Assembly: GCF_009931435.1 (NCBI RefSeq)
Contig: NZ_CP043414.1
From: Escherichia coli
GTDB taxonomy: Bacteria > Pseudomonadota > Gammaproteobacteria > Enterobacterales > Enterobacteriaceae
DNA: 64,000 nucleotides
Reading direction: 5' to 3' (one strand)
Below are positions 5,349 to 29,503 of this stretch, one piece after another (the first letter of the stretch is position 1; the number at the start of each line of letters is the position of its first letter). The notes under the pieces were generated by a model. It had not been told where the DNA came from. It saw only the letters and a program-made list of their open reading frames with translations, and did no database searches. The position numbers and the translations under genes were made by a program.

Positions 5349-7326
5349 GATGGTTTATCCGTAAGCTCGACGGTGCGCAAGAAGAAATCCAGCGTTTCGT
5401 CGATGGTTTCCTGCATATCAATTTTGGGTTCCCAGTCCAGGCAGCGGCGGGCATTACGGATGCTTGGTTTACGATGCTCTACGTCCTGATATCCCTTGCC
5501 GTAGTAGCTGCTACTTTCGACAACGCGAAAGCCCGCAAACGGTGGGAAGTGATGGCGCAGCGGATGTTTTTCGAAGCTCGCCAGCAGCATCTCGCCCAGT
5601 TCCTCAATGCTCGCTTCGTTATCAGGATTGCCAATGTTGATAATTTCGCCGTCGCAGCGATTGCCTGCATTTTCGATAATGCGATACAACGCTTCAATGC
5701 CATCCCGGATATCAGTAAAGCAGCGTTTTTGTTTTCCGCCATCAATCAGCTTAATCGGTGAACCTTCCACCAGGTTGAGAATGAGTTGCGTAATAGCGCG
5801 GGAGCTGCCAATTCGCGCTGCATTAAGGTTATCCAGTCGTGGCCCCATCCAGTTAAACGGGCGGAAGAGGGTAAACTGTAAACCCTCTTTTTCGCCATAG
5901 GCCCAGATCACTCGATCAAGTAATTGTTTAGACACCGAATAGATCCAGCGTGGTTTATTCACCGGGCCGACGATTAAATTAGAATGGTCTTCATCGAAGT
6001 ATTTATCGCTACACATCCCATAAACTTCTGAAGTCGACGGGAAGATGATTCGCTTACGGTACTTCACGCAGTAGCGGATAATGCGCAGATTCTCTTCAAA
6101 ATCGAGTTCAAATACGCGCAGCGGGTTGCGGGTATATTCAATCGGCGTGGCTATCGCCACCAAAGGCAAGACGACATCACATTTTTTGACGTGATACTCA
6201 ATCCATTCGGAATGAATACTGATATCGCCTTCGACAAAGTGAAAATGCGGATGATTCAGAAAACGGCTTATCGCATCGCTGCCGATATCCAGACCGTAGA
6301 CTTCATAGTGATCTTCGCGCAGCAGGCGTTCTGTCAGATGGTTGCCAATAAAGCCATTCACCCCGAGGATGAGTACCCGTGTACGGCGTCGGGCGGCGCA
6401 GGCAGGCTGGCTATTCAAGCGTGAACCTTGCACCAGCCCCAGTGTCTGCGCCAATTGCGAGCCTTGCATAGTAATGCCGTCGCCCGCCTGTCCGGTGACG
6501 ATTTCCAGCGCGCCATCGCCACAGGCAATCAGCAACGGCGCAACAGAAATCACGCTTCCCGGCTGCGCTGCGGATGTATGAGGATGTACGCGTGACGACC
6601 AGACGGTAAATTTTTGATTACCAACATAGCTGAAGGCTCCCGGCCACGGATCGGCGACGGCACGCACCATGTTATGCAATACTGCTGCCGGTTTATGCCA
6701 CTCGAGGAAGCTGTCTTCTGGCGTTCTGCGACCAAAACAGGTGGCTTCGTTTTCGCGCTGGACGATTTCCAGAATATTACCGTCTTTAATGGCGGGTAAT
6801 GTCTGCTCCAGTAGCTGGCGCGCGGCATGGCATAACTTGTGATGAAGCGTAATGGCGATATCGTCTGGCGCAATGGCAATGCGCAATTGGGCCACAATGG
6901 CCCCAGCATCGGCACGTTTCACCATTCGGTGCAATGTCACGCCAGTTTCCGTTTCACCGTTCACCAGCACCCAGTTCAGCGGCGCGCGACCACGATATTT
7001 TGGTAACAGCGAACCATGCAGATTAAATGCGCCTGCAGGGGCGAGCTGCAAAATCTCGTCGTGAATAAGATGGCGATAATAAAACGAGAAAATCACCTCC
7101 GGCGACATTTGGGCAATGCGCTCCACCCATAGTGGATGATTAACGTTATCCGGCGCGTAAACCGGAATGCCTCTTTCCGCTGCAAGTCGGGCAACCGAAC
7201 CATAAAAGGCTTTTTCACCGGGATTATCAGTATGAGTAAAAATAGCGCTAATTTCGTAACCGGCAGCCAGCAGGGCTTCAATACCGAGGCATCCCATATC
7301 GTGGTAGGCAAAAACGACGGTTTTCA

Positions 7327-7327: not shown

Positions 7328-8298
<971 letters not shown>

Positions 8299-22798: not shown

Positions 22799-24157
22799 AT
22801 GTTGAGTATTTTTAAACCGGCGCCACACAAAGCGCGCTTACCTGCCGCGGAGATCGATCCGACTTATCGTCGATTGCGCTGGCAAATTTTCCTGGGGATA
22901 TTCTTTGGCTATGCTGCTTACTATTTGGTTCGTAAGAACTTTGCGCTCGCTATGCCTTACCTGGTGGAGCAGGGATTCTCACGCGGTGATTTAGGTTTCG
23001 CGCTTTCTGGGATCTCGATCGCCTATGGATTTTCGAAATTCATCATGGGTTCGGTGTCGGATCGCTCGAATCCGCGCGTTTTCCTCCCCGCAGGTTTGAT
23101 TCTGGCGGCGGCAGTGATGCTGTTTATGGGCTTTGTGCCATGGGCGACATCGAGCATTGCGGTAATGTTTGTACTGTTGTTCCTCTGCGGCTGGTTCCAG
23201 GGGATGGGGTGGCCGCCGTGTGGTCGTACTATGGTGCACTGGTGGTCGCAGAAAGAACGTGGCGGCATTGTGTCGGTGTGGAACTGTGCGCACAACGTCG
23301 GTGGTGGTATTCCGCCGCTGCTGTTCCTGCTGGGGATGGCCTGGTTCAATGACTGGCACGCGGCCCTCTATATGCCCGCTTTCTGCGCCATTCTGGTGGC
23401 ACTATTCGCCTTTGCGATGATGCGCGATACCCCACAATCCTGTGGCTTGCCGCCGATCGAAGAGTACAAAAACGATTATCCGGACGACTATAACGAAAAA
23501 GCGGAACAGGAGCTGACCGCAAAGCAAATTTTCATGCAGTACGTGCTGCCGAACAAACTGCTGTGGTACATCGCCATCGCCAACGTGTTCGTTTATCTGC
23601 TGCGTTACGGCATCCTCGACTGGTCACCGACCTACCTGAAAGAAGTTAAGCATTTCGCGCTGGATAAATCCTCCTGGGCCTACTTCCTTTATGAATATGC
23701 GGGCATTCCGGGCACCCTGTTATGCGGCTGGATGTCGGATAAAGTCTTCCGCGGTAACCGTGGGGCAACCGGCGTCTTCTTTATGACACTGGTGACCATC
23801 GCAACTATCGTTTACTGGATGAACCCGGCGGGCAATCCCAACGTCGATATGATTTGTATGATTGTCATCGGCTTCTTGATCTACGGTCCTGTGATGTTGA
23901 TCGGTCTGCATGCGCTGGAACTGGCACCGAAAAAAGCGGCAGGTACGGCAGCGGGCTTTACCGGTCTGTTTGGTTACCTGGGCGGTTCGGTGGCGGCGAG
24001 CGCGATTGTTGGTTACACCGTGGACTTCTTCGGCTGGGATGGCGGTTTTATGGTAATGATTGGCGGCAGCATCCTGGCGGTTATCCTGTTGATAGTTGTG
24101 ATGATTGGCGAAAAACGTCGCCATCAGGAATTACTGCAAAAACGCAATGGAGGCTAA
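22799..24157 (+). CDS. glpT: glycerol-3-phosphate:phosphate antiporter (452 aa)
   Basis: 452-aa [35 protein letters not shown]... Confidence 0.95.
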
Positions 24158-24161
24158 TGGC

Positions 24162-25238
24162 ATGAAATTGACGCTGAAAAACCTTAGCATGGCGATCATG
24201 ATGAGTGGAATGATCATGGGAAGCAGTGCAATGGCGGCGGATAGCAACGAAAAAATAGTCATCGCCCATCGCGGTGCCAGTGGATATTTACCGGAGCATA
24301 CGCTGCCAGCAAAAGCGATGGCGTATGCGCAGGGGGCAGATTATCTGGAACAGGATTTGGTGATGACCAAAGACGACCATCTGGTTGTTCTGCATGACCA
24401 TTATCTCGATCGTGTTACTGATGTCGCCGATCGTTTCCCGGACAGGGCGCGTAAAGATGGCCGTTACTACGCGATAGATTTTACGCTGGATGAAATTAAG
24501 TCGCTGAAATTTACCGAAGGTTTCGATATTGAAAACGGTAAAAAAGTGCAGACTTATCCGGGGCGTTTCCCGATGGGTAAGTCTGACTTCCGGGTGCACA
24601 CCTTTGAAGAAGAGATTGAATTTGTTCAGGGGTTAAATCACTCTACCGGGAAAAATATCGGTATCTATCCAGAAATTAAAGCGCCGTGGTTCCATCATCA
24701 GGAAGGGAAGGATATTGCGGCAAAAACGCTGGAAGTGCTGAAGAAATATGGTTACACCGGCAAGGACGACAAAGTTTATTTGCAATGTTTTGATGTTGAT
24801 GAACTGAAGCGCATTAAAAATGAGCTGGAACCCAAAATGGGCATGGACCTCAATCTGGTACAGTTGATTGCCTATACCGACTGGAATGAAACGCAGCAGA
24901 AACAGCCGGACGGAAGCTGGGTTAATTACAGCTATGACTGGATGTTCAAGCCGGGCGCTATGAAACAGGTAGCGGAATATGCTGATGGCATTGGTCCGGA
25001 TTACCATATGGTGATTGAGGAGACATCGCAGCCGGGTAATATCAAGCTTACCGGAATGGTAAAAGATGCACAGCAGAATAAGCTGGTGGTGCATCCTTAT
25101 ACCGTGCGGGTCGACAAGCTGCCGGAATATGCCACCGATGTGAATCAGTTGTATGATGCTCTGTATAACAAAGCGGGTGTAAATGGGCTGTTTACTGATT
25201 TCCCTGATAAGGCAGTAAAATTCCTTAATAAAGAGTAA
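24162..25238 (+). CDS. glpQ: periplasmic glycerophosphodiester phosphodiesterase (358 aa)
   Basis: Start at MKLTLKNLSMAIMM with RBS GGAGG; signal peptide followed by HRGASGYLPEHT motif. Confidence 0.95.
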   Translation: MKLTLKNLSMAIMMSGMIMGSSAMAADSNEKIVIAHRGASGYLPEHTLPAKAMAYAQGADYLEQDLVMTKDDHLVVLHDHYLDRVTDVADRFPDRARKDGRYYAIDFTLDEIKSLKFTEGFDIENGKKVQTYPGRFPMGKSDFRVHTFEEEIEFVQGLNHSTGKNIGIYPEIKAPWFHHQEGKDIAAKTLEVLKKYGYTGKDDKVYLQCFDVDELKRIKNELEPKMGMDLNLVQLIAYTDWNETQQKQPDGSWVNYSYDWMFKPGAMKQVAEYADGIGPDYHMVIEETSQPGNIKLTGMVKDAQQNKLVVHPYTVRVDKLPEYATDVNQLYDALYNKAGVNGLFTDFPDKAVKFLNKE

Positions 25239-25248
25239 TGCTACTGCA

Positions 25249-25270
25249 GGATGGCGTTTATGCGCCATCC
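25249..25270 (+). terminator. Hairpin downstream of glpQ
   Basis: GGATGGCG-TTTAT-GCGCCATCC perfect stem-loop 11 nt after the glpQ stop; no strong T-tract. It lies at the boundary of the AT-rich islet. Confidence 0.45.
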
Positions 25271-25457
25271 TCTGCTAAAGCGAAATAATGCTACTACCGG
25301 TTATTCTTTTCATTAACGGGTGCATCCTGTAAAAAGATGCCAACATAATTTTCGTAAAACTCATTCGTTAAAAAAGCTAACACTGTGCATTGTTATTCTT
25401 TAAACAGTATGAATAGGTCTCAATAATAAATTGTAATGCAGTTTATACTGTAAAGTA

Positions 25458-26528
25458 TTATTCGAATTTCGGAAAGGTAAAGAAAATATTAATGTATCTT
25501 ATTAATTTATCATATTGTTCTTGGGTGAATGCTGTTTGCACACCTTCAGGGCAATATTTACCAGTAATAACCAGTTGCCCATTGCTGTGTTGTACCATTA
25601 AACCTTCTTTTTCCTTTGGATCTACAAAATTAGAATTATCAAATGTGAAGATATTTTTTTCCTGTTTTGAGTAAGTAAAGAAATCTCGTGTATAGCTGAA
25701 ACTATCATTTATTAATGGTGCTAACTTTTTGTCGGCGATATCGATAAGCTCACCACTTAATTTATTGATGTATTTAATTTGCTTCAATTTTTTCTGCGCT
25801 TGCACAATTTGCTTGTAGGTGTTTTCAATTTTTTTAGAAGAATTCTTAAATACATCATAGCGTTCCTCGGAGGATGTGTATTTGTACCATTCTGTATTTT
25901 TCTCAGAATGTTGTAGCAGGTCTGTATATTTTTTTTGATCGCTGTAAAGTTGACTTTTAATACTTTCCTCACTGCTGATCTTATAATGTTTATCAGAGTT
26001 GTTTGTTTTTGAAATGTCCTTTTCTGTCAGTGTCTGGTCCGTGTTGTGGGTATTTTCTTTTGCAACATGCTCATTGATGATGTTAATTGCAGTTTCATAT
26101 TCATTTAAATTTATTGTTCTTTGTGAAAGAAACCCTTCTTTGCTTTCGATACTCAAAACACCTTCGTTGTTTTCACCTCTGGTAAAGGTAAGGATATAGG
26201 GTTCATAATCTTCTGCAAATTCATTTTTATACGTTATGACATGCTCGACAAAATGTCTTATTGGTACGAAACCATAACTGTGAACGTCAATTTTTTTGGT
26301 CTTGACACTATCAATTTCATCTGAGGCTTTCGTGAAAAAAGCCAATAAATTAGCTATGTTGTCTGCTGAGGTTGATAACCCGAATCTACTTTGAGATATT
26401 TTTAGAAACTCATTGCAAAAAATCTCAAGTTTCGCGGTTTGTTGTGATTCTTTGTAAATTTCTGCTGTTTGCAATTTATTATTTTGTAAAATATTACAGC
26501 GAGATAAGTGAATAGATGTATTTGGCAT
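25458..26528 (-). CDS. Hypothetical protein, AT-rich orphan ORF (356 aa from the RBS-supported start; 368 aa from the first ATG)
   Basis: Long uninterrupted ORF with about 30% GC in a roughly 51% GC chromosome; AAGGA Shine-Dalgarno 7 nt upstream of the ATG at 26528; no signal peptide or TM helix evident; Lys/Glu/Ser/Asn-rich central segment; no family recognised. Confidence 0.6.
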   Translation of the reverse strand: MPNTSIHLSRCNILQNNKLQTAEIYKESQQTAKLEIFCNEFLKISQSRFGLSTSADNIANLLAFFTKASDEIDSVKTKKIDVHSYGFVPIRHFVEHVITYKNEFAEDYEPYILTFTRGENNEGVLSIESKEGFLSQRTINLNEYETAINIINEHVAKENTHNTDQTLTEKDISKTNNSDKHYKISSEESIKSQLYSDQKKYTDLLQHSEKNTEWYKYTSSEERYDVFKNSSKKIENTYKQIVQAQKKLKQIKYINKLSGELIDIADKKLAPLINDSFSYTRDFFTYSKQEKNIFTFDNSNFVDPKEKEGLMVQHSNGQLVITGKYCPEGVQTAFTQEQYDKLIRYINIFFTFPKFE

Positions 26529-26993
26529 AAATGATTCCTTGTAGTGTGAGTTAACAAGATACAATTTAATCTTTGCAGAATATATTCACTATCAAATTTA
26601 GCTCATTTTATTACGAAGACCTTTACGCATGTTAGAAAGTATCATTATTGTTAATAAATACGGTAATAAGTAACAAACAGATATTGATAACTTCCCTGAC
26701 AAGTTATTAGGTATCCCACTTGAAGATTGAGAATGGCTCCAGAGTAGACTGTGTACTGTTCGCCGGAGTGTCATTACTCTCAACAATCGGTTTTGACAGT
26801 GAGTCGGGCGCTTCATACCGGTTTCTACCTGGAGTCATTGTCACTTCCCTAATCTGGATAAATATTTATCGCTAATTCACAAAGTGGACCAAAATCAGGT
26901 GAAAACGAATTATTACGCATGGTAAAGACTACAGGCCAACTAAGTGTGGCGAATCAGACAATCTTACATTTGTCATCAATCTCATGTCTCACA

Positions 26994-27212
26994 TCAAATT
27001 TTTCCACTCACCACGAGTTGTTCCGTACACGTTTGTAGTAAAAACAGTGGACTGCCTTCTACCGGCTTTTCTTTAGCCAACAACGAAATCTGTCGATAGA
27101 AGGTTGGTTCGTGAGGAACGGAACACAATTCACCTGCAATGGTTTTCAGCGTTAACTCTGGTAATAAGGCGATGCCTAATCCCTGTCGAATAAAATTCAT
27201 CGCTGTATCCAT
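26994..27212 (-). pseudogene. yfaH: LysR-family regulator C-terminal remnant
   Basis: 72-aa ORF resembling the C-terminal effector domain end of LysR regulators (MDTAMNFIRQGLGIALLPE...); no room for the N-terminal HTH before inaA. Confidence 0.6.
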
Positions 27213-27415
27213 CTGATTAAATTCACATTTTATTTGCTGGGCGCACTATTAGTGGTAGTGGCTGGTGGAGTCTATGCGCTGCAAATGAAGGGTAAAAGCG
27301 GTGTCGCGCTAGTAGTGGCAAAAGAAATTCATTAATACGACACGTTTCATTAAGATTTTTCGCAGGTAACCACCTATAGTCATTGTCGTTAATAAAAAAT
27401 GACAGGCGATAGGGT

Positions 27416-28066
27416 ATGGCAGTTTCAGCAAAGCACGATGAATTTAATCACTGGTGGGCAACAGAGGGCGACTGGGTTGAAGAGCCTAACTATCGCCGTA
27501 ATGGTATGAGCGGGGTGCAATGCGTCGAGCGCAACGGCAAAAAGCTGTATGTGAAGCGCATGACGCATCATCTGTTTCATTCCGTACGTTATCCGTTCGG
27601 TCGACCGACGATTGTCCGTGAGGTTGCGGTAATTAAAGAGCTGGAACGGGCTGGTGTCATTGTGCCGAAAATCGTTTTTGGTGAAGCGGTGAAAATTGAG
27701 GGTGAATGGCGCGCGTTGCTGGTGACGGAAGATATGGCGGGGTTCATAAGTATTGCTGACTGGTATGCCCAGCATGCAGTAACACCTTATTCTGACGATG
27801 TTCGGCAAGCCATGTTGAAAGCTGTGGCGATGGCGTTTAAGAAAATGCATAGCGTTAATCGTCAGCATGGCTGTTGTTACGTTCGCCACATCTATGTGAA
27901 AACAGAAGGTATGGTAGAAGCTGGTTTTCTTGATCTGGAGAAAAGTCGTCGCCGCTTACGTCGGCATAAAGCGATTAATCATGATTTCCGCCAGCTGGAA
28001 AAATATCTGGAGCCGATCCCTAAAGCGGACTGGGAGCAGGTTAAAGCGTATTACTACGCCATGTAA
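27416..28066 (+). CDS. inaA: kinase-like acid-inducible protein InaA (216 aa)
   Basis: 216-aa ORF MAVSAKHDEFNHWWATEGDW...; conserved position next to yfaE. Confidence 0.9.
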   Translation: MAVSAKHDEFNHWWATEGDWVEEPNYRRNGMSGVQCVERNGKKLYVKRMTHHLFHSVRYPFGRPTIVREVAVIKELERAGVIVPKIVFGEAVKIEGEWRALLVTEDMAGFISIADWYAQHAVTPYSDDVRQAMLKAVAMAFKKMHSVNRQHGCCYVRHIYVKTEGMVEAGFLDLEKSRRRLRRHKAINHDFRQLEKYLEPIPKADWEQVKAYYYAM

Positions 28067-28068
28067 TC

Positions 28069-28110
28069 ACGTAGGCCAGATAAGACGCGTAAGCGTCGCA
28101 TCTGGCACAA
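28069..28110. repeat. REP element (imperfect palindrome)
   Basis: GTAGGCCAGATAAGACGCG...CGCATCTGGCAC between convergent inaA and yfaE. Confidence 0.6.
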
Positions 28111-28118
28111 GTACCCGA

Positions 28119-28373
28119 TCACAACTCGATTTCAATATCGCCTTTTGCCCGGCAACAACAGGGCAAAATTTCCCCCGGCTGAATAAAGGCTAACGGTTCG
28201 GCAATCCAGTCCACCTGGCCTGCAACAAGGCGTGTGCGACAGGAACCGCAGTAACCTTCGCGGCACTGGTACTCAACCGCCACATTGTGGGATTCCAGCG
28301 CCGCCAGAAGGGAAGGGTGTTCATCCTGGCACAGCAGTTGTGTGCCAGTGATGCGCAGGGTAACGCGAGCCAT
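28119..28373 (-). CDS. yfaE: 2Fe-2S ferredoxin for ribonucleotide reductase cofactor maintenance (84 aa)
   Basis: 84-aa ORF with a CxxxxCxxC...C ferredoxin motif immediately downstream of nrdB. Confidence 0.9.
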   Translation of the reverse strand: MARVTLRITGTQLLCQDEHPSLLAALESHNVAVEYQCREGYCGSCRTRLVAGQVDWIAEPLAFIQPGEILPCCCRAKGDIEIEL

Positions 28374-29503
28374 CAGAGCTGGAAGTTACTTAAATCGTCG
28401 GTGTCCACTTCCGAGTCAATCTGCCCGACCAGATAAGAACTCACTTCCACTTCCTGCGGAGCAACCTGTACGTTATCAGACACCAGCCAGGTGTTGATCC
28501 ACGGGATCGGGTTGGAGCGTGTCTGGAACGGCAGATCCAAACCGACCGCCTGCATACGGATATTGGTGATGTATTCAACGTACTGGCAGAGAATGTCTTT
28601 ATTCAGACCAATCATCGAACCGTCACGGAACAGATAATCCGCCCAGTCTTTCTCTTGCTGTGCCGCCTGGACAAACAGGTCATAGCACTCCTGCTTACAC
28701 TCTTCGGCAATTTCTGCCATTTCCGGATCATCCGCACCGCTGCGCAGCAGATTCAGCATATGCTGCGTACCGGTCAGGTGCAGGGCTTCATCGCGGGCAA
28801 TCAGGCGAATAATCTTGGCGTTACCTTCCATCAGTTCGCGTTCTGCAAAGGCAAAGGAACAAGCAAAGCTGACGTAGAAGCGAATGGCTTCCAGTGCGTT
28901 AACGCTCATCAGGCAGAGATACAGTTTTTTCTTCAGCTCACGTAGGCTAACGGTCACGGTTTTACCGTTGACGGTGTGGGTGCCTTCGCCCAGCAGGTGC
29001 CAGTAGCTGGTCATTTCGATCAGTTCATCGTAATAGCTGGAGATCCCTTCCGCACGTTTCTGGATCTGCTCGTTGGTGACGATATCGTCAAACACAACAG
29101 ACGGATCGTTAACGATATTACGAATGATATGAGTATAGGAACGGGAATGAATTGTTTCTGAGAATGCCCAGGTTTCTACCCAGGTTTCCAGTTCCGGGAT
29201 CGAGATCAGCGGCAGCAGTGCCACGTTCGGGCTGCGACCCTGAATGGAGTCCAGCAACGTCTGATATTTCAGGTTGCTGATAAATATGTGTTTTTCGTGT
29301 TCAGGCAGTGCCTGGTAATCGATACGGTCACGAGAAACGTCAACTTCTTCCGGACGCCAGAAGAAAGAGAGCTGCTTTTCGATCAGCTTTTCGAAGATGT
29401 CATATTTTTGCTGATCGTAGCGAGCCACGTTGACCGGCTGACCAAAGAACATCGGTTCTTTGAGCTGATCATTTTTCGTCTGAGAAAAGGTGGTATATGC
29501 CAT
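28373..29503 (-). CDS. nrdB: class Ia ribonucleotide reductase beta subunit (376 aa)
   Basis: Start at [17 protein letters not shown]; the longer track ORF runs upstream into the REP element and is rejected. Confidence 0.95.

Follow-up and report, generated by a model that had tools for sequence, protein, structure and literature searches.

What is the short hydrophobic reading frame that lies between yfaH and inaA, and how did it come to be there? We addressed this in a window of 64,000 nucleotides of Escherichia coli DNA, in which the surrounding region runs glpT–glpQ ... inaA–yfaE–nrdB. Read on the plus strand, positions 27213–27338 of the window translate as LIKFTFYLLGALLVVVAGGVYALQMKGKSGVALVVAKEIH, followed by a stop codon at 27333–27335; within this stretch, 27231–27332 codes for YLLGALLVVVAGGVYALQMKGKSGVALVVAKEIH. 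The initial annotation had described an in-frame hydrophobic stretch at 27237–27335 that ends in a stop and has no start codon. Translation bears this out: the interval is exactly 32 codons plus the stop, and its frame offers neither ATG nor GTG as a start. On its left the stretch directly adjoins a fragment of a LysR-family regulator gene on the minus strand, yfaH (26994–27236). On its right an 80-bp spacer (27336–27415) extends from the stop codon to the start of inaA. In the ORF list inaA is intact (27416–28066, plus strand, 216 aa), and matching RefSeq genomes name its product ‘lipopolysaccharide kinase InaA’.

If this stretch is the tail of a larger gene, which gene was it? We compared positions 26900–27500 by megablast with 5,426 complete E. 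coli genomes, and in some strains the place of the tail is taken by an annotated ‘MFS transporter’. The parent is WP_000660231.1, an intact 396-aa MFS_1 transporter encoded directly upstream of inaA in O157:H7 and many other strains. Its C-terminus reads GYRMIYLLGALLVVVAGGVYALQMKGKSGVALVVAKEIH before the stop. All 34 residues of the tail are identical to residues 363–396 of the O157:H7 protein, the stop codon is common to both and the 80-bp spacer to inaA is the same. This match lies far above chance; the reading of the tail as a chance ORF was rejected on the 34/34 identity. The 3′ remnant of the MFS gene, codons 363–396 and the stop, is placed at 27231–27335 (plus strand) on this identity and on PGAP annotation, with unambiguous MFS-derived sequence from 27237 onward. 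The suggestion of a lost membrane-protein gene whose 3′ end survives here is therefore borne out: the parent exists, intact and at the syntenic site. The search for such a parent that was proposed with it, against the possibility that no intact homologue exists anywhere, turned up the intact LysR–MFS pair in 1,216 of the 5,426 E. coli genomes (approx. 22%), and intact copies in other Enterobacteriaceae as well.

The parent matches Pfam PF07690 (MFS_1) with E = 3e-60 over residues 14–346. It reaches no NCBIfam cut-off; its best NCBIfam matches, weak and far under those cut-offs, are to the PRK05122 ‘MFS transporter’ and PRK12382 ‘arabinose transporter’ subfamilies and to the staphylopine exporter CntE. 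A functional MFS transporter has a complete fold of two six-helix bundles. The window differs from the parent in holding residues 363–396 only, out of 396, and none of the MFS_1 domain.

How was the remainder lost? In O157:H7 strain 17B6-2 (locus L002) the order is glpQ, a hypothetical gene of 356 aa, a LysR gene of 292 aa on the minus strand, the 396-aa MFS gene on the plus strand and inaA. The divergent partner of the MFS gene is the LysR regulator WP_000176738.1. By blastn, window positions 24000–27241 correspond to L002 3099–6341, and 27229–29000 to L002 8209–9981. Between the two stretches lies a single gap of 1,880 bp, and in the intact allele both of its breakpoints carry the 8-bp direct repeat TTTATCTG (L002 approx. 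6329–6336 and approx. 8209–8216). We defined the junction by a three-way alignment of the stub allele with both intact flanks: one copy of the repeat is retained at window 27229–27236, as TTTATTTG in the window and as TTTATCTG in K-12, which carries the same 1,880-bp deletion. A repeat at both breakpoints, with one copy kept, is the signature of a microhomology-mediated deletion. The LysR protein has lost residues 1–212, and with them its HTH domain and the greater part of its effector domain; the MFS protein has lost residues 1–362, and the divergent intergenic region between the two genes, with its promoters, is gone as well.

The LysR remnant confirms the other edge. Local alignment to the intact 292-aa O157:H7 protein assigns 26994–27236 (minus strand) to residues 213–292 and the stop, with 72 of 80 residues identical; the stub ORF itself spans 26994–27212, and homology reaches 27236. 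The 68-aa yfaH model NF007272 of NCBIfam matches residues 226–292 of the intact LysR. In K-12 (NC_000913.3) yfaH, b2238, is annotated as a pseudogene. Like the MFS tail it is a 3′ fragment without start codon or N-terminal domain, and it forms the opposite edge of the same deletion.

Could the yfaH stub and the MFS tail record two separate decay events? In favour, the truncations affect two different genes, and the interval shows structural polymorphism of other kinds too. Against this, one contiguous gap ends at both truncation points, which argues for a single event rather than two, and the 8-bp repeat lies at both ends of that gap with one copy kept. We aligned seven deletion alleles (the window, K-12, strain 2013C-4282 and four other strains), and in all seven the junction, with its single retained copy of the microhomology, is identical and without indels; among the matches listed, the deletion alleles span a constant 341–342 bp. 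The collinearity analysis already refutes the two-event reading, which we regard as scarcely credible. The stub and the tail thus mark the two ends of a single deletion flanked by microhomology. The initial annotation had called the tail a second remnant. It does come from a second gene, but not from a second event, the one 1,880-bp deletion having made both.

Which of the two states is the ancestral one? Using the MFS protein as query, we scanned species-representative genomes and recovered intact orthologues from two further Escherichia species (92–97% amino acid identity) and from E. whittamii (90%). The same scan found them in Salmonella enterica subspp. arizonae and diarizonae, in several Citrobacter and Kluyvera species, and in Klebsiella spallanzanii, Superficieibacter, Phytobacter, Pluralibacter and Pseudocitrobacter. 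The order (glpQ)–LysR–MFS–(inaA)–yfaE–nrdB is kept in nearly all orthologue-bearing genomes, and LysR–MFS synteny between glpQ and yfaE/nrdB is seen in more than 20 enterobacterial species besides E. coli. Since the pair is syntenic across genera, it is ancestral and the stub allele is derived. The converse, insertion of a LysR–MFS segment into an ancestral K-12-like site, was rejected on the intact order in the outgroups. The tail then has what a 3′ remnant should have: a frame and a stop shared with the parent, a position directly upstream of inaA, collinear flanks, a lost 5′ part and an ancestral intact state. We conclude that it is almost certainly a relic without function, in which the final 34 codons of an MFS_1 transporter gene survive, left by one deletion shared with yfaH.

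The events may be reconstructed as follows. The ancestral interval contained glpQ, the LysR gene on the minus strand, a divergent promoter region, the MFS gene on the plus strand and inaA. Illegitimate recombination or replication slippage between the 8-bp repeats, 1,880 bp apart, is the mechanism that the repeat suggests. The deletion fused the 3′ stub of LysR tail-to-tail with that of the MFS gene. What the MFS stub still encodes is half of the last transmembrane helix, its second, and the cytoplasmic tail. Having lost promoter, start codon and functional domain set, both remnants would be dead and drifting. The deletion left intact the upstream region of inaA, which begins just behind the MFS stop codon, so that inaA itself should be unaffected.

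Did the deletion happen once? Four LysR changes, Y215C, H219Q, P220A/M and S225N, are common to the stubs of the window, K-12 and 2013C-4282, at sites invariant in all 12 intact LysR orthologues examined. The shared junction together with these shared substitutions indicates, as far as the alignments go, a single origin followed by relaxed selection. In the stub, decay is thus visible at conserved residues, whereas the shorter tail of the window shows none: over a length of only 99 nt it has no amino acid change relative to the O157:H7 protein. In other strains the tail varies non-synonymously (G383S, A387K or A387T, L388P, V390A) and the LysR stub of some carries a frameshift or an internal stop. 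In these strains decay is still under way. About six substitutions fall within 48 nt beside the junction (window 27190–27228, minus-strand LysR codons approx. 215–225) and are shared by K-12, 2013C-4282 and the window; they strike residues that do not vary in any intact orthologue, and this cluster may reflect relaxed selection or mutagenesis tied to the deletion event.

Might the tail have acquired a function of its own? The ORF list opens it at a TTG at 27234, giving 33 codons to the stop at 27335, and it might have been recruited to serve as a small hydrophobic membrane protein in its own right. The ORF is uninterrupted and in the window has this possible start, its peptide is hydrophobic, and the frame is open in the five deletion alleles whose tail was translated. 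However, the codon at 27234 is TTG only in the window and in strain 2013C-4282; in the other five of the seven deletion alleles, K-12 included, it is CTG, and there is therefore no conserved start codon. Nor does direct reading of the window reveal a purine-rich or Shine-Dalgarno-like ribosome-binding site 5′ of the TTG, so that the tail ORF has neither of the two marks expected of a small-protein gene. A consensus scan of 26900–27500 returned no sigma-70 promoter and no terminator. The non-synonymous variation between strains also speaks against a small protein, as does the curated K-12 annotation, which lists small proteins of the Ribo-seq era (the 11-aa YoaM nearby, for example) and none here. 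That a frame only 99 nt long, taken over from the parent gene, is still open needs no special explanation. We consider such co-option exceedingly improbable. An Rfam scan of 26500–27600 at E ≤ 1 was likewise empty. We find no evidence for a present-day function of the tail, and it is probably not expressed.

What of a role at the level of DNA? inaA is regulated by MarA, SoxS and Rob, and the 99 nt might be kept as functional non-coding DNA for it, such as an upstream regulatory or curvature element. Besides this regulation, one observation favours the proposal: two independent losses have their ends within the last 20–100 nt of the MFS gene and leave all that follows untouched. The second of these is a full-loss allele, in which everything between glpQ and inaA is gone. 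Its right edge lies approx. 19–25 nt inside the MFS 3′ end, and approx. 75–80 of the 99 tail nucleotides have been dropped. It occurs in 1,058 of the 5,426 genomes (approx. 20%), and the examples inspected retain an inaA annotated as intact, so that the greater part of the tail can be dispensed with. Furthermore, the candidate activator box and the -10 element are both downstream of the MFS stop. The box, a possible MarA/SoxS/Rob site at 27337–27355, matches the consensus with three mismatches only, and the marbox scan gave 147 matches in the window against 138 expected, so that the match is not statistically meaningful. The other element is a conserved TATAGT at 27375–27380. Both belong to the 80-bp spacer, presumably the promoter region of inaA. 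It lies outside the deletion, and its sequence is conserved whichever of the three alleles (intact, deletion or full loss) a strain carries, and also in Escherichia species besides E. coli. Literature searches on yfaH and on inaA and its marbox gave no description of the remnant and no inaA promoter sequence. We judge a non-coding role of the 99 nt to be very improbable. Taken more broadly, the idea that tail or junction is not inert, yielding either a small hydrophobic peptide in the TTG strains or DNA that contributes to regulation upstream of inaA, is very unlikely; a regulatory contribution of that kind would account for the halt of two independent deletions just short of the MFS stop.

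The full-loss allele is independent of the 1,880-bp deletion. In one example, E. coli FDAARGOS_1373 (locus L004 4898–5100, approximately window 27310–27415), glpQ and inaA are approx. 200 bp apart. Approximately 70 bp of filler (L004 4930–5000) could not be matched to any intact allele or outgroup: its local alignment scores were no better than those of shuffled controls, and blastn-short gave no matches. The 1,880-bp deletion is the most frequent state, carried by about 3,098 of the 5,426 genomes (approx. 57%), K-12 among the carriers. The few remaining genomes include versions disrupted by IS5 or IS1 or otherwise rearranged.

How does the AT-rich islet to the left of the LysR stub fit this history? 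It occupies 25272–26981, has a GC fraction of approx. 0.30 and holds an ORF of 356–368 aa on the minus strand (25458–26564), which had no match in Pfam, NCBIfam or PADLOC and no meaningful match in PHROGs. K-12 and the Escherichia outgroups lack the islet, and there 49 bp separate glpQ from the 3′ end of LysR; the islet is therefore an insertion, carried by 1,045 of the 5,426 complete genomes. The deletion allele stands beside it, as in the window, in approx. 338 of these and, by subtraction, approx. 707 have the islet and no deletion, approx. 2,760 the deletion without the islet and approx. 509 neither. The insertion is independent of the deletion and no part of that event. Only about 250 bp (window 26982–27236) separate the islet edge from the junction. 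Given all four combinations at sites so close, and a deletion of apparently single origin, either recombination must have taken place inside the stub or the islet must have been gained or lost repeatedly. The initial annotation had inferred repeated insertion and deletion in the glpQ–inaA interval from the yfaH stub, the tail and the islet. Across strains this is what we find, in the islet, the full loss and the IS5 and IS1 insertions, while the stub and the tail count as one event. As a separate observation, window positions 24000–29000 are unusually divergent, with 94–96.6% identity to K-12 and O157:H7 over glpQ, inaA and the start of nrdB, and the best full-length match to the 601-bp query (26900–27500) was 98.8% identical. 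This divergence suggests old, recombining haplotypes.

Has the tail been noted before? In K-12-like RefSeq genomes PGAP marks it as a pseudogene, ‘hypothetical protein; incomplete; missing N-terminus’ (ACX13D_RS09740, C6996_RS26925). These entries have the same sequence, position and stop codon as the tail, at approx. 105 nt. They differ from the present description in that the parent family is not named, whereas here both the parent, WP_000660231.1, and the causal deletion are defined. The curated K-12 record (NC_000913.3) annotates yfaH and has no gene at the MFS tail, which there falls at about 2349585–2349686 on the minus strand. The tail is an ordinary deletion remnant, the partner of a known pseudogene, and automated annotation had already flagged it. 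What is new is that the parent gene is now named, the loss traced to a single event at a microhomology and the frequency of each allele given; this is bookkeeping rather than discovery. It means that yfaH and the unannotated 99 nt upstream of inaA in K-12 can be read as the two halves of one deletion scar, and it gives a name to the lost pair, a LysR regulator and an exporter-like MFS transporter. This is useful for curation of the K-12 record and for differences in phenotype between K-12 and O157:H7 that possibly involve the transporter. It also supplies a clean case of a microhomology-mediated deletion at high frequency in a species. Beyond annotation its importance is small.

Two further observations concern the neighbours of the tail. 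The closest non-enterobacterial relatives of the MFS protein are from Firmicutes, at approx. 55% identity (Desulfosporosinus sp. FKB, L030; Bacillus sp. EB600, L032), and the Desulfosporosinus copy adjoins a weak match to the LysR regulator (25% identity) on the opposite strand. These relatives hint at an ancient horizontal transfer of the transporter. Of the outgroup loci (L009–L029), only those of Escherichia and of one Pseudocitrobacter MAG have inaA between the MFS gene and yfaE. In Salmonella arizonae and diarizonae, in most Citrobacter and Kluyvera and in several other genera the MFS stop is approx. 10 bp from yfaE, and inaA looks like a lineage-specific insertion at this site, or a gene lost in the other lineages.
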